Both the position numbers and the translations under genes were made by a program. A stretch of DNA of 64,000 bases from Patescibacteria group bacterium (GTDB taxonomy: Bacteria; Patescibacteriota; Patescibacteriia; UBA1558; GWA2-36-10): contig JAHJQF010000001.1 in NCBI GenBank assembly GCA_018819405.1, forward strand, positions 577,377-641,376, read 5' to 3'. The notes beneath the pieces were generated by a model that saw only the letters and a program-made list of their open reading frames with translations, was not told the origin of the DNA and did no database searches. Shown here piece after piece: positions 3,264 to 62,918 of the stretch. Every line of letters begins with the position of its first letter. Position 1 is the stretch's first letter.

Positions 3264-6200
3264 ATGACAAGCATGAGAAAAATTAATAAATCCAGACTAG
3301 TAATATTATTTTTGATGTTTAGTCTGGTTTTTTCTAGTGTAGCGCCAAGTTTGGCACAGGCTAGAGAAATACTCACTCCAGTGGAAGTAGTGCCAGTAGA
3401 AGATTCAAAAGAAACAGGTATTCCTGTGGTGGAGATTTTGCCTTTGCCAGTAGAGGAATATCCTATTAATGATAAGCCTGTAGATATTGAGCCAATTATT
3501 GATGAGCCGGTTTTGTCACCAGAAGAGCGACTGGAAACACTTTTAGAAGATCCGCCAGCCGATATAACTTATTTGGATAAAGATGAGAAAAAACTGGCTA
3601 ATAAGAAATTAAATATAGATGTTGATAATAATACAGGTGCTTTAATTTATAATTATCCTATTCAAATTCCTTCAGGCCGTAATAATTTTCAGACAGATAT
3701 CAGTTTAACTTATAATAGCCAAGATAAAGAGACACATAATTTATTTGGTTTAGGATGGTCGGTAAACATTCCCAGTATAGAGGTAAGCACTAAACGGGGC
3801 GTTTATTATATGTATAGTAATTACGATTATATCTCATCTATGAGTGGTGAGTTGGTGCCGGTGGGCGCTGTCACTCCGTATGGTAATTATGGCGCTCGGG
3901 TTGAAAACGGCGACTATTTACAATATGAATTTTCTAGTATTACTAATGCTTGGACAGCGACCGATAAACAGGGGATAGTTTATAAATTTGGATCCAGCTT
4001 ATCTAGTCGTCAGGATAACCCTGAAGGACCGAGTATGATATATAAATGGATGCTAGAAGAGGTAAGAGATACAAATGACAATTATATTCGCTATGAATAT
4101 TATAAGGATCAGGGGCAGATTTATCCAGCCAAGATATTTTATACAGGGCACGGTAGCACCGATGGGATTTTCGAAATAGATTTTATCAGAGAGTCTCGTC
4201 TAGATGATTTGGAATCTTATGATAGTAGGTTTTTGGTCAAGAATAATTATCGTATTTCTGAAATACAAATAAAAGTGAATGGCTCTTGGGTCAAAAAATA
4301 TAATTTTAATTATACAGTTGGGGAAAATGGGTCTTTATCAATTTTGGACAACATTGTGGAAAGTGGTAGAGATGAAACAAGTGGACAAGTGATAACATTA
4401 CCCAGTGATGATATGAGTTATAGCCAGGATTTAGAAAGTTGGCAAGGTGGAATAGATTGGAATTTTCCAGTTGGTTTTATTAGTGACAATGGCTATCAGT
4501 CTTTTGATCTGGGCGTACGCATGGCTGATATCAATGGCGATGGATTGACCGATATAGTCAAAGGTTATAGAGATATAAAAGAAATTTATATTAATCATTA
4601 CCCCGATTGGAGTACTAGTACCACTTATTCATTGCCAGATTCTTTTATTTCGGGGGACAATTTTGATGATGGTTTGAGATTGGCCGATGTGAATGGGGAT
4701 AATTTAGTGGACTTGATAAAAGCTGTATATCTTCAGGACGAAGTTAGAGAAATCAGAGCGGTCTATATCAATAATGGTACAAACTGGGTTTTGGATCCTT
4801 CTTGGATTTTTCCTTTGAATTTTGTCAGGCATGATGATTCGGGTGCGGGTATAAGAAGTTTTGATTTGGGTACGCGTATGGCCGATATCAATGGTGACGG
4901 TTTGGTTGATGTGGTATTGGGTTCAAATATAGAAACAAACAAAATTTATATTAATAATGGACATGGTTGGGATTTGGAAACAAATTATACTTTACCTACT
5001 TATTTTGTAGATTCGGATCAGGACGCGGGCACTCGTTTTATGGATGTTAATAGTGATGGTTTGATAGACATTGTCAGAGGAGTGAATGCTTATGGTGCAG
5101 GAGGTGGAAATCAACATAATGAAGTTTATATTAATAATGGGCATGGTTGGGAACTGAATTTAAATTATAGTCTGCCCACTTATTTTGTAAATTTTGATGG
5201 TAGTTGGTATACAGATTATGGTACTAGATTATCAGATATCAATGGGGATGGTTTGATTGACATTCTTCGTGATATATATCCTGATACTTCCGAGGTTTAT
5301 ATTAATACGGGTCAAGGTTGGCATTTAAATAATAATTATTACATATTGAGTCATTTTTTAGGAGGGTCATTTATGATAGACCAAGGGGTTAGACTTTTTG
5401 ATATCAATGGTGACGGGCAAGATGATTTTATAAGAGCTAAAGAGGCTTATCCCAGATATGTTCATGTAAGTTTAGCAAATAAAGAAAATTTAGAAACAGT
5501 TAATAATTCTCGTGGCAGTCAAATTAATTTGGAATATCAGTCAGCTACTCAATATATAGACAGCCCAGACAATCTACCTAATCCCGACTTACCATTTAAT
5601 ATAGAGACAGTCAAAAATATTGTTATAGACGATGGTTTGGGAGGTATTGCCACTACTACCTATAGCTATAGTGGGGGAGACTACTATTATGCTGATCCAT
5701 ATGATAAAAAGTTTGCTGGCTTTGCAGAAGTAGAAAAAACAATTGGTAATCAGAAAACCACCACTTACTATCACCAAGGTAATGTTAGTGATTCTAGTCA
5801 AGGAGAATATCAAGATAGCTACTATAAGATTGGTAAGCCATATCGCCAAGAAATATATGATAATAATACCAATGGATTATTGAATCAGAATATTTACAAA
5901 TGGGAAGAAACCGACTTAGGGCATAATAATAAATTTGTATATAATTCTCAGAAGGCGTCTACTGATTTTACGCAAAGCATTCAATCAACAGCTGTGCAAA
6001 ATGAATATGATTTTAGCACGGGAAATTTACTTACTGAGCATAGTTTGGGTCAAGTGCAGGTAGATACTGCAACTGGTGAAATTTTGGATCAAGTAATTGG
6101 CGATGAAAAAGACACAAATTATGATTACGCCCAAAATACAACCAAACATATTTTAGCAGCTCCAAAAACTAAAATTATATCGAACACTTCTGATAGTAAG

Positions 6201-11834: not shown

Positions 11835-11855
11835 TAAAATTAAATTTCTAACGGG

Positions 11856-16270: not shown

Positions 16271-16282
16271 ATTTCTAACGGG

Positions 16283-18302: not shown

Positions 18303-18395
18303 ATTGCTTTTTTAAAAATAATAATATAAAGTCATTATAACAGAAAATTTTGTTAAAATAAATGGTAAAATATATAATAATTAATTTTTAACGAG

Positions 18396-20218: not shown

Positions 20219-20258
20219 ACACTTGGAAAAAGCTATTTAATAATTAATTTCTAACGGG

Positions 20259-21340: not shown

Positions 21341-21369
21341 TTGACAAAAATATAAAAATATGATATAAT
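21341..21369 (+). promoter_or_regulatory. consensus sigma70-type promoter (TTGACA-17-TATAAT)
   Basis: TTGACA at 21341-21346, a 17-nt spacer, then TATAAT at 21364-21369. It lies upstream of the GC-rich gene. Confidence 0.55.
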
Positions 21370-21446: not shown

Positions 21447-22115
21447 ATGACTCGTCTGTTCAAACTCGTTGCCCTCATCGCCATGTCCCTTTCCATCTTC
21501 GCGCTGCCGGCTGCGGCTCAGTGGCAGCACAACATCAAGTGGTCAGACTCCTGGCACGCTCCGCGAGCCAGGATCCTGTTTCACAACAGCGAGGAAGTCT
21601 CGCCTGGGCTGGAGCGGCGTATCCATTGCTTGTTCCCCAACGTCAACCTCGAAGGTCGGCTCAACTTCCTGGCGTATCTGGGTCTCAACTTCAAATCGAT
21701 GTCACATCTGGATGTCGAGCCAGCTATTGGCTACAACCTGCGTCAGGAGACGATGATCACCTCCACGCGCTTCAGTCTGTATGACGGCCAGTCCATGGCC
21801 TACAGCCGGGCTTATGCTTGGCTGGATCTGGAATACACCCCCAATGGGCAGGGCACCTACTATTTTGCCCAGGCTGAGTACAGCGCTTTGGAGTATGTCG
21901 AATTCGGATTGGAGTCTGAAGGCTGGGGAGGCTTGGACGGCCAAAGCAAATCCATCGGTCTCGGTCCGAACTTGATCCTGCATTTCCGCCGTGGACCGCA
22001 CAACATCAACGTCGATCTGGCGGTCCATTACCGTGACCTCGATGACGTGCCGGACGCGGGCTGGAAGCCGGAGTTCTTCTTCCGGCTGCATCTGATCCCC
22101 AACTTGACAGATTAG
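21447..22115 (+). CDS. GC-rich foreign-looking secreted protein (signal peptide; beta-rich, aromatic-rich), hypothetical
   Basis: Canonical SD AAGGAG 8 nt before the ATG. Signal peptide LVALIAMSLSIFALPAAAQW. GC-rich with CTG/CCG/GCG-rich codon use unlike neighbours. Multiple spurious overlapping ORFs on both strands, typical of GC-rich DNA. Confidence 0.55.
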   Translation: MTRLFKLVALIAMSLSIFALPAAAQWQHNIKWSDSWHAPRARILFHNSEEVSPGLERRIHCLFPNVNLEGRLNFLAYLGLNFKSMSHLDVEPAIGYNLRQETMITSTRFSLYDGQSMAYSRAYAWLDLEYTPNGQGTYYFAQAEYSALEYVEFGLESEGWGGLDGQSKSIGLGPNLILHFRRGPHNINVDLAVHYRDLDDVPDAGWKPEFFFRLHLIPNLTD

Positions 22116-22195: not shown

Positions 22196-22224
22196 TTGAC
22201 AATATTGCCATTATAATATATAAT
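22196..22224 (+). promoter_or_regulatory. consensus sigma70-type promoter (TTGACA-17-TATAAT) for rplJL
   Basis: TTGACA at 22196-22201, a 17-nt spacer, then TATAAT at 22219-22224. Confidence 0.6.
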
Positions 22225-22404: not shown

Positions 22405-22944
22405 ATGACAATTAATATAAATTATATGCCAAAAACAAGACAACAAAAACAAGATATTTTGGACAATTTGAAAGATAAATTAGCCAAAAGTAAATCAGTA
22501 GTTTTTAGTTCTGACAACGGTCTATCTGTCAAAACCATTGAAGGCATCAGAAAAGAAATGAAGCAAAACAATGCTGAATATTTGGTAGCCAAAAAGACTT
22601 TGGTCAAAATGGCCACCGAAGATATATCAGATGTTAATTTGGACAGTTTGACCGGTTCGGTAGCTTTGACTATTTCTTATGAAGATGAAGTGGCCGGAGC
22701 CAGATTACTAAACAAATATGCCAAAGAAAATGAAGCCTTGCAGCTTGACGGTGGTATTTTGGAAGGTAAGTTCATCATGGCTGATATGGTCAAAAGATTA
22801 GCCAATTTGCCATCCAAAGAGCAATTACTAGCCAAATTGGTGGGGTCACTCAATTCTCCAATGGCCGGTATAGTAGGAGTACTATCTGGTGTACAGAGAA
22901 ATTTTGTTGGAGTTTTATCAGCTATTAAAGATCAAAAAGAATAA
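22405..22944 (+). CDS. rplJ: 50S ribosomal protein L10
   Basis: KQDILDNLKDKLAKSKSVVFSSDNGLSVKTIEGIRKEM...EYLVAKKTLVKMA is L10-like and is followed by rplL. The start may be the downstream MPKTRQQ (22426). Confidence 0.85.
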   Translation: MTININYMPKTRQQKQDILDNLKDKLAKSKSVVFSSDNGLSVKTIEGIRKEMKQNNAEYLVAKKTLVKMATEDISDVNLDSLTGSVALTISYEDEVAGARLLNKYAKENEALQLDGGILEGKFIMADMVKRLANLPSKEQLLAKLVGSLNSPMAGIVGVLSGVQRNFVGVLSAIKDQKE

Positions 22945-28755: not shown

Positions 28756-28855
28756 TATATAAAATAGCGATGAATCCCGTTAGAAATTCACAAAGTCATA
28801 ACGGGGATATATAAGTAAAATAATAAAAATAAATTTCACTATAATTTCTAACGGG

Positions 28856-32630: not shown

Positions 32631-32707
32631 GGGCATGTAGCTCAGTTGGTTAGAGCACTACATTCACATTGTAGGGGTCGAAGGTTCGAGTCCCTCCATG
32701 CCCACCA
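32631..32707 (+). tRNA. tRNA-Val (anticodon CAC), CCA encoded
   Basis: Acceptor GGGCATG/CATGCCC, D-arm GCTC-AGTTGGTTA-GAGC, anticodon stem CTACA/TGTAG with loop TTCACAT, T-loop TTCGAGT with one A-C mismatch in the T-stem. Confidence 0.7.
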
Positions 32708-32756
32708 TTTTACTCTATTTAGCTTTATAAATTTTTATTATTATATGCTTATGTTA

Positions 32757-32787
32757 GAAAACAACTTGCTCAAGTTGTTTTTGTTAA
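32757..32787 (+). terminator. intrinsic terminator after the tRNA pair
   Basis: AACAACTTGCTCAAGTTGTTTTTGTT. Confidence 0.55.
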
Positions 32788-32900
32788 ATTTGAGATATTA
32801 GCTATGCCTTGATAATATATTAGTAGAATAAAAATAATCAAAATATTTAATAATATAATTGTCCAAATAGATATTTTTTTGTTATAATTATAATACTAAT

Positions 32901-33635: not shown

Positions 33636-34061
33636 CTAGTGCCCTTCCTTGTTCCAGTACTTGGTGTAGGCCCAGTCGAGGCGTTCGATCTTGGGGTTGG
33701 AAATGTCCTGGACTATCGTCGGTACACCGACGCGGATACGAACGAGCTCGCGGAGCTGTTCGCCGGTGTCGGGGTCGACACCGCCGTTGAGGTACAGGGT
33801 CGCTTTCTGCCGGATGAGCTCGTTGACCGAGCTTGCGGTCACGATGTCTTCGACGAAGTTGGGCTTGTCACCCTGGGGTTTGAAGTGGAAGACCACATGG
33901 CGCAGGTCCTTGAGCTCCGTCTTGGGGGGCTCGGGAACCTCCGAGTAGGGGTTGTCCTTGAGTTTGATGGTCACCTTCTCGGGCTTGGTGATGTCGCTCT
34001 TGGAGCAACCCACGGTCGAGATGGCAACCAGCAGGAGGAGGATGGTGGCGAACAGTTTCAT
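33636..34061 (-). CDS. GC-rich foreign-looking lipoprotein, hypothetical
   Basis: Lipobox-like signal LLLLVAISTVGC-SKS. Canonical SD GAAAGGA 8 nt upstream. GC-rich with an overlapping spurious plus-strand ORF. Confidence 0.5.
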   Translation of the reverse strand: MKLFATILLLLVAISTVGCSKSDITKPEKVTIKLKDNPYSEVPEPPKTELKDLRHVVFHFKPQGDKPNFVEDIVTASSVNELIRQKATLYLNGGVDPDTGEQLRELVRIRVGVPTIVQDISNPKIERLDWAYTKYWNKEGH

Positions 34062-34224
34062 GACGCGTCCTTTCGTCGGGTGTCAGTGACTTGACTAGCG
34101 AATTGTCTGTATATGTGAGTGCTTTTTGAGCACTTCTTTGGAAACGAACTTGCTTTGAGCAATCATATAATTATAGCATCTTTTATCTTTTTTGTCAATT
34201 TTATAGACTTAGACCCAATAATAG

Positions 34225-37315: not shown

Positions 37316-37484
37316 GTATGAAAATTGAAATTGATTGTAAATAAATACTAGAGAGCCTAATATCGCTAATTAGCGAAGCCTGGAAGGCTGCCTGCCCCGT
37401 AGCTTTAGCGTAGCGGGGAGCTTATAGGCGCAAAAGCAAAATTACGAGGCTTAGTATATGGTATTTTGGCTGTTTTGTCAATAT

Positions 37485-42296: not shown

Positions 42297-43118
42297 ATGG
42301 CTCAAGATAAGCGGATCAATGCTCACCTGAGTAAGTTGTCTCTGGATGAGCAGGAAGCTTGTTCTCTGGTTGGCGGCTACGGTAGTCGTCATTTATCACC
42401 GACTTTTGTCTACGATTTTCGTCTCTTGCCGGAGGTCGTGATCTACTCCGGACCAAGTCGCTGTTGCCTGCGACGCATGATCAGGCAAGCCGAGAAGACT
42501 GGTAGCCGCAAGGCCTTGATCATGGATTTGGCTGATCGCACCAGGGTCAGCAAGCGATCTGTCCGTCGTTGGTTTAGCCTGAAGGCCGAACCCGGGCTCT
42601 TCCACTGGCTGGCTCTGCAGTACTTCATGTATTTCAAAGGATATGTGTCCCACGAAATCAGCATGCTGCCGGACTACGCCCGTAGTCTGATTGAGTCTGT
42701 TATCCAGGACAAGATCAGTCTCGGACAGGTGGCTCAGCGCATGGGCTGCAATCTGAATGATCTTGGAGAGCTTTTCCGAGGAGAGCGTCGGCTCACCTCC
42801 AAGGATAGACTCAAGATGTTGATGCTGGTCAGATATTTGAGTGATCAGCAGCACAATGAGGCTGTCCTGGCGGTGGCGGAGCTGGATCTCAACGAGGAGG
42901 GCGATACTCAGCTGACTGATGAAGGCATTAGTCAGGTTGCGCGCTATCTGCCTACTTTCGGACAAAATCATCGTCAGATTTTGGCCGGGGACAAGGCCAG
43001 CGACAGCACCAAGACTGATGGCGAATCGGCCGTCAAACGCAAGAAGAACACCAAGCGCAAGATTCGTCGCAACCGCGCGGCCAAGCGCAAGGAAAAGGAG
43101 AACGACAAGGACTCCTGA
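42297..43118 (+). CDS. GC-rich foreign-looking HTH-containing protein with lysine/arginine-rich C-terminal tail, hypothetical
   Basis: Canonical SD AAAGGAG 9 nt upstream. HTH-like LADRTRVSKRSVRRWF and SLGQVAQRMGCNLNDLGELF. C-terminal KRKKNTKRKIRRNRAAKRKEKE. Elevated GC with a fully overlapping antisense ORF. Confidence 0.5.
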   Translation: MAQDKRINAHLSKLSLDEQEACSLVGGYGSRHLSPTFVYDFRLLPEVVIYSGPSRCCLRRMIRQAEKTGSRKALIMDLADRTRVSKRSVRRWFSLKAEPGLFHWLALQYFMYFKGYVSHEISMLPDYARSLIESVIQDKISLGQVAQRMGCNLNDLGELFRGERRLTSKDRLKMLMLVRYLSDQQHNEAVLAVAELDLNEEGDTQLTDEGISQVARYLPTFGQNHRQILAGDKASDSTKTDGESAVKRKKNTKRKIRRNRAAKRKEKENDKDS

Positions 43119-50936: not shown

Positions 50937-51191
50937 ATGAGTCAGGGTAGTATCGACAGGGAAGGAGCCTTCATCGACATCACAGTGCCTGTCGAATTTG
51001 CCCAGGAAATTCGTGACCGACTAAGTCAGTGCGAGTCTTACACTCTTGATCAAAACAATTGTCATCAGGATCAGGAGGTGGCGCACATACGCATAATCCT
51101 CAAGGTCATGTCCAGAGGGGCATGTTACCAGAAGATCAAGGAGATCGGTCAAGAATTAGGGATTTCTGTCTTGGACAAGACAGCAGGCTGA
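50937..51191 (+). CDS. GC-rich foreign-looking small protein (84 aa), hypothetical
   Basis: Canonical SD AAGGAGG 9 nt upstream of the ATG. GC-rich, CTG/CGC-rich codons. Followed by a strong hairpin terminator. Confidence 0.45.
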   Translation: MSQGSIDREGAFIDITVPVEFAQEIRDRLSQCESYTLDQNNCHQDQEVAHIRIILKVMSRGACYQKIKEIGQELGISVLDKTAG

Positions 51192-58261: not shown

Positions 58262-58864
58262 CTAACCTCTGGTTTTTTGGTTGAAGCGTAGTCTGGTTAC
58301 AGCTATCGCTATAGTACCCTGTAGCAGGATCAGCCAGATGCCGGTGATCAGGTGCCCGTCGAGCAGGCTGCAAAAAGTAGCAGTGACGGCCAATGCCCAG
58401 GCCAAGAGGTCTTCTTGTTTTTTTTCCACAAGGACCTTTTTGAGGATGGGTAAGGAGGCAGCACTGATACCCGCCAAGGCGCAAGCAGTAGCAGCCAGAG
58501 GGCCGACAGACAAGTAGAGGGCAATAGATATGCCCACAAATATACTGCAGCCTGTTTCCAGCTTTGACCAAGTGGCGTATCCGTATTTCAGGGTGAAAAG
58601 GGCTACAGCCAGTGTGCCAATATTATACTCAATCATCATCGGGTCAAGGATGCCATTACTGAGCTGGCTGCCCAGAATGACAACGTCGAGCGCCATGTAT
58701 AGAAACCAAGACGAGCGAGGAGGCGGTGGCAGTGTACCCTTGACCATGGCCACGATAAAGCGCAAATGCACTATCGCGGAAAAGACAAAGGATAGTAGGC
58801 CAAAGAGCCTTACTTCGATAGGATAGCCCCGAAGGGCCGTGTCTATCACGACAGGATTCCACAT
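58262..58864 (-). CDS. GC-rich foreign-looking integral membrane protein (about 5 TM), hypothetical
   Basis: Canonical SD GGAGGG 8 nt upstream. GC-rich with overlapping spurious ORFs on both strands. A TTGACA-18-TATATT promoter lies at plus 58914-58942 on the minus strand. Confidence 0.5.
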   Translation of the reverse strand: MWNPVVIDTALRGYPIEVRLFGLLSFVFSAIVHLRFIVAMVKGTLPPPPRSSWFLYMALDVVILGSQLSNGILDPMMIEYNIGTLAVALFTLKYGYATWSKLETGCSIFVGISIALYLSVGPLAATACALAGISAASLPILKKVLVEKKQEDLLAWALAVTATFCSLLDGHLITGIWLILLQGTIAIAVTRLRFNQKTRG

Positions 58865-60414: not shown

Positions 60415-61830
60415 ATGCAAAGAAGCAAAACTATTGAAACAGTTGGAAAAATAGGTGAAAATGTCCAGCTCTTTGGTTGGGTCAATGTCCGCCGTAATAT
60501 GGGTAAAATTGTCTTTCTTGATTTGCGAGATCGTTGGGGCATACTACAAGTAGTAGTTGTACCATCTGAGCTAGATAAAGACTCTGAAGAAATTTTGGCT
60601 AATATTAGACCTGAATATGTTTTATCTATTCAAGGTTTGGTTCAAAGTAGAGGAGCTAAACAGATTAATAAAGATTTGCCAACTGGTATGGTGGAAGTTT
60701 TGGCCAAAAAGATAAATATATTGTCCAGTGCCGAGACACCGCCTTTTGAAATAGACAATGAAGAACGTCAGGCCAATGAAGAATTGAGACTCAAATATAG
60801 ATATCTTGATTTGAGACACGAGCGCATGAAAAAAAATATCTTAGTCAGAGACAAGGTTTTTGCCTATTTACGTAATTATTTGCATGACAATGATTTTATT
60901 GAAATTCAGACTCCTATACTTTCCAAATCAACTCCGGAAGGAGCTAGAGATTATTTAGTACCGAGTCGTTTGCATAAGGGCAAATTTTTTGCTTTGCCAC
61001 AAGCCCCACAGCAATACAAGCAGCTACTCATGGTGGCTGGTATGGAAAAATATTTTCAGATTGCTCCATGTTTTCGTGATGAAGATGCCAGAGCTGATAG
61101 AAGCCCAGGTGAATTTTATCAACTAGATATGGAAATGTCTTTTGTCAAACAAGAAGATATTCTTAATCTGGTAGAGAGTATGTTTACTGCCATGGTAGAG
61201 GAGATATTTCCAGAAAAGAAAATGACTTTTAGTCCTTGGCCACGATTAAACTACAGTGAAGTAATGGAAAAATATGGCTCTGATAAGCCAGATTTGAGAA
61301 AAGACAAAAATGATCCAAATGAATTGGCTTTTGCCTGGGTAGTAAATTTTCCACTATTTATGCCACAGACTGATGAAGACAGATTTGTCGGCGCCGGGGA
61401 CACTTGGGGCCCGGCTCACAATATGTTTACAGCACCCAAAGAAGAAGATGTTGCTTTGCTAGATTCTGATCCAGGCAAAGTCAGATCATACCAACATGAT
61501 TTGGTACTCAACGGTTTTGAAGTAGGTGGGGGAGCAGTTCGTATTCATGATATGAAAATTCAGGAAAAAGTCTGGGATTTGATTGGTTTTACAGATAAAC
61601 AAAAAGAACAATTTAGACACTATTTTGAAGCATTCAAATATGGTGTCCCACCACATGGTGGTATTGCGCCTGGTTTGGAAAGACTTTTGATGGTACTCTT
61701 GGGTGAAAAAAACCTCAAAGAAGTAACAGCCTTTCCTTTGACTTCAGATGGGCGGGATCCGATGATGGAGTCTCCATCAGAAGTAGACAAGTCTCAACTT
61801 GATGAACTTGGTCTAGAATTGAAGAGATAA
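60415..61830 (+). CDS. aspS: aspartate--tRNA ligase, short form lacking the GAD insertion
   Basis: LRLKYRYLDLR, motif 2 FRDEDARADRSPGEFYQLDMEMSF, motif 3 GGIAPGLERLLMVLLG. 471 aa. Confidence 0.85.
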   Translation: MQRSKTIETVGKIGENVQLFGWVNVRRNMGKIVFLDLRDRWGILQVVVVPSELDKDSEEILANIRPEYVLSIQGLVQSRGAKQINKDLPTGMVEVLAKKINILSSAETPPFEIDNEERQANEELRLKYRYLDLRHERMKKNILVRDKVFAYLRNYLHDNDFIEIQTPILSKSTPEGARDYLVPSRLHKGKFFALPQAPQQYKQLLMVAGMEKYFQIAPCFRDEDARADRSPGEFYQLDMEMSFVKQEDILNLVESMFTAMVEEIFPEKKMTFSPWPRLNYSEVMEKYGSDKPDLRKDKNDPNELAFAWVVNFPLFMPQTDEDRFVGAGDTWGPAHNMFTAPKEEDVALLDSDPGKVRSYQHDLVLNGFEVGGGAVRIHDMKIQEKVWDLIGFTDKQKEQFRHYFEAFKYGVPPHGGIAPGLERLLMVLLGEKNLKEVTAFPLTSDGRDPMMESPSEVDKSQLDELGLELKR

Positions 61831-61873
61831 TTTTAAAATATAGATAAAATTAATATATTGTCCTCAACTCGTA

Positions 61874-61949
61874 AGTCCCCGCCAAAGAGCTATGCCTCAG
61901 CAATCTACCAGACTGGAGAGCTCTTTGGCGGGGACTCTTTCTTTTTTTT
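61874..61949 (+). terminator. intrinsic terminator of aspS (18-bp stem, large loop, T-tract)
   Basis: AGTCCCCGCCAAAGAGCT...AGCTCTTTGGCGGGGACT followed by CTTTCTTTTTTTT. Confidence 0.7.
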
Positions 61950-61976
61950 GACAAAATCAATTTTTTATATTATAAT
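61948..61976 (+). promoter_or_regulatory. perfect consensus sigma70-type promoter (TTGACA-17-TATAAT) driving a non-coding GC-rich segment
   Basis: TTGACA at 61948-61953, a 17-nt spacer, then TATAAT at 61971-61976. Confidence 0.6.
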
Positions 61977-61983
61977 TCTCAAG

Positions 61984-62149
61984 AATTCAGTTCCTATTCA
62001 TTTCATCGCATCATGCTGCAGAGTTGGATCCCCAGCTCCAATCCTGACGGCATGGCCGTCGTACTAGAAGCGTGCTCCACAAGAGTATTTCGAGACGCCT
62101 CTTACGATGGCACCCAGGGGTTCGGCAATCGTCGAACCCCTCTTTTTTT
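61984..62149 (+). ncRNA. candidate small RNA (about 165 nt, GC-rich, structured) of unknown family
   Basis: Bounded by the consensus promoter and an intrinsic terminator AGGGGTTCG-GCAAT-CGTCGAACCCCT-CTTTTTTT (62115-62149). No plausible ORF: the only long frame runs through the terminator stem and lacks an SD. Internal hairpins GACGGC-ATG-GCCGTC and GCGTGCTC...GAGACGC. Confidence 0.45.
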
Positions 62150-62213
62150 GTTGAAAATAAAAACTAAAAATGTTATAATATTTGTGAAATTCTTAATTTT
62201 TTTATTATAGCCA

Positions 62214-62918
62214 ATGCATAAAATTCAGCTTGAACAATTTGAAGGGCCGCTTGATCTCCTGCTAAAACTAATAGAAAAAAATAAGTTACAAATCACAGAA
62301 ATTTCTTTAGCTAAGCTTACTGATCAATATCTCTCATATATAGAAAATACTGACAACTTGGCTTCCACTGAAGTGGCCGATTTTTTGTTGATTGCTTCTA
62401 AACTTATTTATCTAAAATCAAAATATCTTTTACCTGATCTTGATGTAGAAGATGAGCAGGGTGCTGGTGATCTGGAAAAACAACTCAAAATATATCGTCA
62501 GTATTATGAAGCCAGCTTGGCTATCAATAAAATGTTTTTGAGTAAAAAGAAATTTGCTTATCATCGTATGGCTAGCTACAAACTGCCTCAAGACCAAGGA
62601 TTTTCACCACCACAAAATGCTGATCCATATTCTATGAAAGAGGTTTTTTTATTGGTTTTATCCAAAATTGAAAGAGTGGTCAACTTGCCCAAGATGGTTA
62701 TTGCTAGGGCTATTTCTATAGGAGAAAAAATATCACATATTCAGGAGATGATAAAAAGTAATACCAAATTTAATTTTAAAAAGCTTTTGCAAAAAAACGA
62801 TAAGACAGAGATTGTAGTCAGTTTTTTGGCGCTTCTTGAATTGGTAAAAAGAAAAGAAATTAATGTAGATCAAGAGGCTCTTTTTGGTGATTTAAATATT
62901 TCAAAAAACAATAAATAA
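62214..62918 (+). CDS. scpA: segregation and condensation protein A (kleisin ScpA)
   Basis: N-terminal LEQFEGPLDLLLKLIEKNKLQITEISLAKLTDQYL kleisin motif. Followed by scpB. Confidence 0.85.
   Translation: MHKIQLEQFEGPLDLLLKLIEKNKLQITEISLAKLTDQYLSYIENTDNLASTEVADFLLIASKLIYLKSKYLLPDLDVEDEQGAGDLEKQLKIYRQYYEASLAINKMFLSKKKFAYHRMASYKLPQDQGFSPPQNADPYSMKEVFLLVLSKIERVVNLPKMVIARAISIGEKISHIQEMIKSNTKFNFKKLLQKNDKTEIVVSFLALLELVKRKEINVDQEALFGDLNISKNNK

Follow-up and report, generated by a model that had tools for sequence, protein, structure and literature searches.

A candidate small RNA gene between aspS and scpA of an uncultured patescibacterium, and a diverging family of related units upstream of scpA

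Described C-rich and GC-rich RNAs and the aspS-scpA unit

The small RNAs that come closest in design to the unit described here are those of the Gram-positive C-rich motif type. RsaE/RoxS carries C-rich stretches that pair with G-rich Shine-Dalgarno (SD) regions (PMC4409812), and the multicopy LhrC sRNAs of Listeria monocytogenes have CU-rich loops (PMC4132741). Surveys of GC-rich intergenic regions (GC-IGRs) by the Breaker laboratory have found structured non-coding RNA candidates in AT-rich genomes, with no mention of scpA, aspS or Patescibacteria in either report (PMC11109978, PMC8632094). Our full-text search of the literature likewise found no study of regulatory sRNAs in Patescibacteria/CPR. 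These bacteria, mostly uncultured and with tiny genomes, account for a large share of bacterial diversity.

The unit lies between aspS and scpA, at 61948-62149 of a 64,000-nt stretch of DNA (the window; 36% GC) from an uncultured Patescibacteria (CPR) genome. Like RsaE/RoxS and the Rsa sRNAs with UCCC motifs of Firmicutes, it has its own promoter, an intrinsic terminator, stable hairpins and several unpaired C-rich stretches. In contrast to RsaE/RoxS, the window sRNA is longer, with two long hairpins in addition to the terminator, belongs to the phylum Patescibacteria, displays CCCCAG and CUCCA where RsaE/RoxS repeats UCCC, and resides in a host that uses few SD sequences; it has no match to the Rfam model of RsaE even at E<=10. 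LhrC1-5 are encoded several in tandem in one intergenic region, and the parallel here is one of sibling units, each with its own promoter and terminator, which form arrays of 2-4 in relatives of the window. The LhrC siblings are near-identical, however, whereas units within the arrays here are often unrelated in sequence; the window itself holds one unit plus the aspS terminator hairpin, and Rfam reveals no homology between LhrC1-5 and the window sRNA. With the GC-IGR candidates the unit shares the principle of its detection, a stably folding GC-rich island in an AT-rich genome, and none of the Rfam motifs that we presume to stem from such surveys matches it. By analogy, the window sRNA may work like RsaE/RoxS or LhrC, without membership in either group.

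Anatomy, fold and conservation of the unit

The genes at the locus run in the order asnS, tRNA-Thr, aspS (60415-61830), the sRNA unit, scpA (62214-62918) and scpB. ScpA of the window is 100% identical to NCBI MBU1203033.1 ('Patescibacteria group bacterium'), and the nearest named relatives of the window are Komeilibacteria or Parcubacteria MAGs, with AspS 81-86% identical. A first-pass annotation of this DNA, made from the letters alone, had proposed a GC-rich, non-coding transcript framed by a perfect promoter right after the aspS terminator and by a strong intrinsic terminator about 165 nt downstream. We found both elements where it had placed them (Table 1), the latter with its T7 tract (CTTTTTTTG) directly 3' of the stem, and a body between them that is indeed GC-rich (52-54% GC, compared to 36% for the window). 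Perfect TTGACA-17-TATAAT promoters number four in the window, compared to 0.02 expected from shuffles. The parts of the locus are closely packed, in that the T-run of the aspS terminator hairpin merges into the sRNA promoter at its -35 box and the T-run of the sRNA terminator adjoins the -35 box of the scpA promoter.

Transcription from this sigma-70 consensus promoter would start at about 61983, some 6-7 nt upstream of the tail that begins at 61990, and would end at the intrinsic terminator, giving an RNA of ~160-167 nt. Ahead of the aspS terminator hairpin is a weak promoter-like site (TTTAAA-16-TATATT, 61832-61859), from which, to judge by its letters, a separate short transcript might conceivably arise. 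The hairpin itself has no homologue in the 100+ loci searched; relatives have a simple aspS terminator at the corresponding place, with an identical TTTTTTTGACA junction.

Table 1. Coordinates of features at the aspS-scpA locus and elsewhere in the 64,000-nt window
Feature	Position	Strand	Description
aspS terminator	61874-61948	+	18-pair predicted hairpin (61874-61936), 27-nt loop, T-rich tail; z = -5.5
sRNA promoter TTGACA-17-TATAAT	61948-61976	+	TTGACA 61948-61953, TATAAT 61971-61976; 12/12 matches
5' single-stranded tail	61990-62011	+	pyrimidine-rich, begins GUUC (GUUCCUAUUCAUUUCAUCGCAU); unpaired probability 0.99
Helix 1	62012-62054	+	16 pairs; apical loop UCCCCAGC at 62029-62036, loop unpaired probability 0.90
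Helix 2	62055-62111	+	base stem GCCGUCGUA/UACGAUGGC (conserved), then inner stems and a variable tip with GCUCCACAAG
ACCC linker	62112-62115	+	conserved, single-stranded by structure comparison and accessibility
Intrinsic terminator	62116-62149	+	hairpin 62116-62141: 11-bp stem (7 GC pairs), 4-nt loop AAUC; then U7
scpA promoter TTGAAA-17-TATAAT	62151-62179	+	TG extension; distinct from sRNA promoter, conserved in relatives
GC-rich ORFan genes	21447-22112, 33636-34061, 42297-43118, 50937-51191, 58262-58864	+, -, +, +, -	48-59% GC
Other perfect TTGACA-17-TATAAT	21341-21369, 22196-22224, 34170-34198	+, +, -	all flank GC-rich ORFan genes
AATTTCTAACGGG motif copies	11845-11855, 16272-16282, 18385-18395, 20248-20258, 28845-28855		inverted copy at 28776-28786

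The + strand of the unit folds at -67.7 kcal/mol with z = -5.6 (- strand, z = -3.1). In this fold a free 5' tail precedes two long hairpins and the terminator, and several of the G-U pairs are possible on the + strand only. The UCCCCAGC loop, the ACCC linker and the 5' tail have predicted unpaired probabilities of 0.90-0.99 in the window RNA, and CUCCA in helix 2 is also predicted to be accessible. Two short helices had been picked out by eye in the first-pass annotation. One, GCGTGCTC...GAGACGC, is part of helix 2, whereas the other, GACGGC-ATG-GCCGTC, is not in the supported fold, in which one of its arms makes up the 3' side of helix 1 and the other the 5' side of helix 2.

Consistent with the same annotation's failure to recognize SRP, 6S, tmRNA or RNase P, a scan of the sRNA against Rfam 15 gave no match at the gathering threshold or at E<=10, riboswitch families included, and ARAGORN found no tmRNA in the region. 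We rejected 6S, SRP, tmRNA and RNase P RNA on this basis; furthermore, the fold has no closing stem with a central bubble as in 6S, having instead a free 5' tail and two separate hairpins, and no GNRA-capped helix 8 as in SRP.

A match to the unit in a different metagenome allowed us to examine its conservation. Searches with blastn and nhmmer had found no homologue of the unit in 80 genome loci chosen as AspS relatives and 22 metagenome loci chosen as ScpA relatives, and homologues were detected only through the contig of the closest ScpA in the protein collection (P0002, 85% identical; ENA ERZ23510489) and through covariance models. The locus on this contig, here called L103, has a homologue at the corresponding position upstream of scpA, with the scpA promoter likewise downstream. 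The L103 promoter is TTGACA-17-TATATT, and its GTTC motif stands 13 nt past the -10 box, as in the window. A covariance model based solely on the window sequence with its MFE structure scored the L103 unit at 85 bits (E = 2e-23), and this unit, folded independently, adopts the same three-hairpin architecture (z = -8.7).

Among the 46 pairs predicted for the window RNA, 32 are unchanged in L103, 6 have compensatory changes, 5 have one-sided changes and 3 are gapped, the gaps corresponding to an indel at the helix-2 tip; none is broken. The 11 pair-preserving changes include one compensatory and three one-sided changes in helix 1 and two compensatory pairs in the terminator stem, and at one pair of the helix-2 base stem the window has U-A, L103 has C-G and L123 has A-U. 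By contrast, the helix-1 loop is identical at 7/8 positions (UCCCCAGC in the window, CCCCCAGC in L103), with CCCCAGC conserved, and the ACCC linker and the terminator loop are kept while the stems change. L103 likewise keeps the sequence of the terminator's apical part, CGGCAAUCGUCG, and L084 and L128 nearly do. Because the stem changes preserve pairing, with 6 of the 11 compensatory and none disruptive, and loops are conserved, this comparison with the one close homologue constitutes our main evidence that selection probably acts on the RNA, and not on DNA or a peptide. Together, the anatomy, the L103 fold and the pair-preserving changes point to an independent non-coding sRNA running from promoter to terminator, much as first proposed.

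If the unit were instead an mRNA for a small protein, the product would have to be that of its sole long ORF (62013-62210; 65 aa, ATG start). This ORF has no SD, runs across both the terminator and the scpA promoter, and is interrupted by a stop at codon 3 in L103; no reading frame is conserved between the two units, and the substitutions follow base pairs, not codons. The RNA is non-coding, in agreement with the earlier judgment that it held no credible ORF, and we regard a small protein as very improbable.

The annotation had also raised the concern that EcoRI, PstI and BamHI sites within 50 nt might mark a remnant of a cloning vector. Its EcoRI site is at 61983, as given; the PstI and BamHI sites are each one position from where it had put them, at 62016 (not 62015) and 62026 (not 62025). 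This is the only spot in the window with at least 3 of 11 classic polylinker sites inside 55 nt, but the 99 classic 6-cutter sites in the 64 kb yield an estimate of ~0.3 such clusters by chance, and the order EcoRI-PstI-BamHI differs from that in the pUC polylinker. We queried 174-221 nt of the region against 72,556 plasmids (PLSDB), 50,697 phage records (INPHARED) and 20,395 E. coli replicons, and found no match in any of them. Moreover, the 396 nt from aspS to scpA are 100% identical in an independent Logan assembly (SRR6514730), and L103 has the same RNA without the three sites. Thus, the vector concern falls away, and an origin in vector, contamination or an assembly artefact can be dismissed with great confidence.

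A variable family upstream of scpA

The single-sequence covariance model also matched units in L084 (25 bits) and L104 (18.6 bits). From four sequences (the window, L103, L084 and L104) we made a second model, which matched L123/L124 (31 bits) and L128/L129, equivalent to L082 (27.7 bits), with further matches in L002, L054 (three units), L091 (three units), L089, L092, L105, L006 and L127. All family matches are on the scpA strand and upstream of scpA, and most are inside the aspS-scpA spacer. Elsewhere in ~0.5 Mb of related DNA, we found just two marginal minus-strand matches to the terminator, and there were no family matches in 121 kb of unrelated phage DNA. Scans of viral contigs with two patterns were equally unproductive, since one pattern returned nothing and the other returned 16 chance matches, of which the model matched 0. 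In an alignment of eight sequences, which was fitted to the model and so leans towards structure, 93% of cells are paired, compared to 36-59% with slid partners; in the same fitted alignment 30 pairs are changed on both sides, compared to 4-10 with slid partners. MAFFT alignments, either with L001, L035 and L004 or of five units, were unusable for structure.

The aspS-scpA spacers of relatives contain 0 to 4 GC-rich promoter-to-terminator units in tandem, and genomes with AspS 81-86% identical to that of the window have units of unrelated sequence at this site. Tandem arrays occur in L054, L091, L092 and L087, often with unlike members; the window has one unit. From the final unit of an array to the scpA start codon there are 51-98 nt, and the scpA promoter lies in this gap. 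Most related units have GTTC 8-20 nt past the -10 box. Each terminator's T-run leads directly into the next -35 box (TTTTTTTGACA), and the units are therefore modular; recombination at short repeats could account for the way in which they are shuffled. Judged by these sequences, the family is lineage-specific and rapidly diverging, with 1-4 tandem copies in Komeilibacteria-like Patescibacteria, and the window unit and L103 are the first-described members of this modular family upstream of scpA.

We considered that the units might be selfish or neutral GC-rich cassettes that duplicate, shuffle and decay via the TTTTTTTGACA junctions, or degraded remnants of foreign genes, with no cellular function in either case. 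Such a view would account for the extreme turnover of units despite 81-86% identical AspS, for the copy number of 0 to 4 and for the short repeats at the junctions, and the same window does contain GC-rich ORFan genes with perfect promoters. However, the compensatory substitutions, the lack of disruptive ones and the conservation of loops between the window and L103 argue against it, as do the searches of the 64-kb window, in which the sRNA unit has no second copy and no similarity to any ORF. We therefore hold functionless cassettes to be rather unlikely.

The constant position of the family suggests another possibility, namely that the unit is a cis element for scpAB, either a leader or attenuator with regulated read-through or else an insulator, UP element or roadblock. 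A local role of this kind is one possible meaning of the strict synteny with scpA: the unit has the same orientation as scpA and nearly always lies directly upstream of it, at ScpA identities of 60-85%, and the T-run of its terminator abuts the scpA -35 box. In addition, helix 1 and helix 2 could form an alternative hairpin through GACGGC/GCCGUC, for which 84% of cells are paired, but as a switch this hairpin does not rise above shuffles (76/500). Against a cis role, too, are the conserved near-consensus scpA promoter between terminator and scpA, the arrays of 2-4 units with a promoter and terminator each, and the strong terminator with no conserved anti-terminator overlapping it. In L082/L128, furthermore, a 180-aa ORF separates a homologous unit from scpA. 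We rejected a riboswitch or attenuator leader of scpA since a promoter intervenes, the alternative hairpin is unsupported and no riboswitch family matches, and we hold a cis role more generally to be unlikely.

Spacers of relatives also contain units of other kinds. Directly after aspS in L001 (5455-5591), L035 (876-1017) and L004 (~2140-2270) there is a different conserved unit with the core GACGGGCTCATAACCC, which runs from promoter to terminator. The window lacks this unit, and Rfam gave no match to it even when the threshold was relaxed. Another unit family has CUCCCUCCAAU(C/U)CCCC, apparently in loops; it comprises L103 2566-2740, the second units of L087, L092 and L006, and L086. In the window sRNA, a related sequence, AGCUCCAAUCC, lies in the 3' half of helix 1. 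In L004 (~2300-2800), a module adjacent to aspS drives a type IV pilin-like ORF (MADFIAVVVIIGILAAVAIP...) and not a non-coding body, with a GTTC motif after the promoter as in the sRNA units. The GTTC motif was compared with an integron-like core site, which we rejected on sequence; the motif of the units is GTTCYY, as opposed to GTTRRRY for the integron core. Rfam finds only tRNAs in the spacers of relatives, and the SRP-like look of L001 unit 1 was unconfirmed by Rfam. In one close relative, L021, an N run of 99-100 nt (5509-5607) takes the place of most of the aspS-scpA spacer; it is probably a scaffold gap, which suggests that the region is hard to assemble.

C-rich loops and possible targets

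We counted k-mers on the transcribed strand of 29 curated units and found that C-rich motifs exceed their complements: UCCC occurs 35 times compared to 12 for GGGA, CUCC 32 compared to 10 for GGAG, and CCCC 52 compared to 31 for GGGG; GUUC is similarly in excess of GAAC (27 compared to 9). The difference is sharper in predicted loops, which contain 16 UCCC, 17 CUCC and 24 CCCC, compared to 0 for their complements. CCCC, UCCC, CCUCC or CUCCAAU is present in apical or internal loops of most members, including those of the window, L103, L123, L104, L105, L106, L002 and L127; L084 and L128 have no C-rich apical loop, and the number and position of motifs differ greatly between units.

On balance, we think it probable that 61948-62149 constitutes a gene of its own, encoding a structured non-coding sRNA of the C-rich base-pairing type. 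Such an RNA would act in trans, through the pairing of its C-rich elements with G-rich segments of mRNAs, for example SD-like sequences, and the pairing would lower the translation or stability of these targets. The elements in question are the loop CCCCAGC and, next to it, CUCC of the helix-1 3' arm, together with CUCCA in helix 2 and the linker ACCC. We favor base pairing with G-rich mRNA because the accessible, conserved C-rich elements resemble those of the Firmicutes sRNAs with C-rich motifs.

The target search was confined to the window. There, blastn-short gave no significant complementarity, the complement of the helix-1 loop had no match, and duplex energies of the sRNA with the 53 translation-initiation regions of the 64 kb were within the shuffled background. 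Pairing with a recurrent AAUUUCUAACGGG-AUG motif was rejected as well, its energies being within the range of shuffled sRNA. An SD-like motif precedes ~4/48 of the AT-rich genes in the window, as against 5/5 of the GC-rich ORFan genes. Because most genes of the organism lack an SD, the classical anti-SD target class is small; the contrast suggests, as a conjecture, that the GC-rich ORFan genes, which do have one, might be a target class.

Another explanation for the exposed motifs is that the RNA binds protein, as a sequestering or scaffold RNA for, e.g., a KH-domain poly(C)-type binder or S1, without any pairing to mRNA. The binding sites would be the C-rich loops, the ACCC linker and the terminator loop CGGC-AAUC-GUCG. 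We note in its favor that the stable hairpins present several short, conserved motifs in single-stranded form, that the terminator-loop sequence is oddly conserved across diverged members, and that the window yielded no pairing target in a genome where SD sequences are scarce. However, no gene for a partner protein is linked, the neighbors being aspS, scpA and scpB, and the variable number and position of motifs are more typical of fast-evolving base-pairing sRNAs. GGA motifs are typical of CsrA sponges, and these are absent from the loops. We consider protein binding without pairing unlikely, if less so than some of its competitors, and retain base pairing in trans as the preferred reading.

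The base-pairing reading can be carried further, to a hypervariable 'sRNA island' in the aspS-scpA spacer whose anti-SD-like loops would hit SD-bearing mRNAs or the mRNAs and ribosomes of a host cell. We regard this extension as distinctly improbable. If it were true, the targets would be the few SD-bearing mRNAs, perhaps those of the GC-rich ORFan genes behind perfect promoters, or, in a more radical version, SD-dependent mRNAs or ribosomes of the host cell of these episymbionts; host switching or an arms race would then lie behind the rapid replacement of units.

In design the sRNA is ordinary; it is the hypervariable island, the C-rich loops in an SD-poor genome and the lack of any sRNA described so far from CPR bacteria in the literature searched that merit follow-up. 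The locus defines a family in computational terms, by its fixed address upstream of scpA, modular build, covariation support and recurring C-rich motif. Such a family can be searched for in metatranscriptomes, bears on post-transcriptional regulation in SD-poor, Hfq-less minimal bacteria and, with its rapid replacement of units at a conserved site, offers a good system for the study of sRNA gene birth and loss. Should this be merely one more lineage-specific sRNA, the value would be modest, consisting of better CPR annotation and a new Rfam family.

Several other features of the window came to light in the course of this analysis. The five GC-rich ORFan products have no Pfam family and resemble a signal-peptide protein, a lipoprotein-like protein, a weak HTH protein, a small protein and a membrane protein; the product of 21447-22112 has just 2 homologues among 5.8 billion proteins. 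All five genes have an SD-like AGGA or GGAG, a feature seen in ~4 of their 48 AT-rich neighbors. We had considered four long GC-rich islands as large ncRNAs and rejected them, since signal-peptide, lipoprotein or membrane features mark the ORFs that they contain. The perfect promoter at 22196 is followed by a leader of ~180 nt and then by a gene at 22405. We also note a motif, AATTTCTAACGGG (with one variant, AATTTTTAACGAG), that abuts the ATG or GTG start of five SD-less genes (Table 1) and is found ahead of scpA in L092. We detected no pairing between this motif and the sRNA; it could be a repeat element or else an alternative signal for translation initiation. An Rfam match to the Helicobacter antisense RNA HPnc0260 at 32669-32797 (- strand; 63 bits compared to a threshold of 59) lies on the opposite strand to an overlapping tRNA-Val and is probably spurious. 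Finally, the tRNA-Lys of the window (37316-37481, - strand) has a TTGACA-17-TATACT promoter and a GC-rich leader of ~130 nt upstream, in which the sequence of the tRNA 5' end recurs (gcgcctataagctc compared to gcgcctatagctc).
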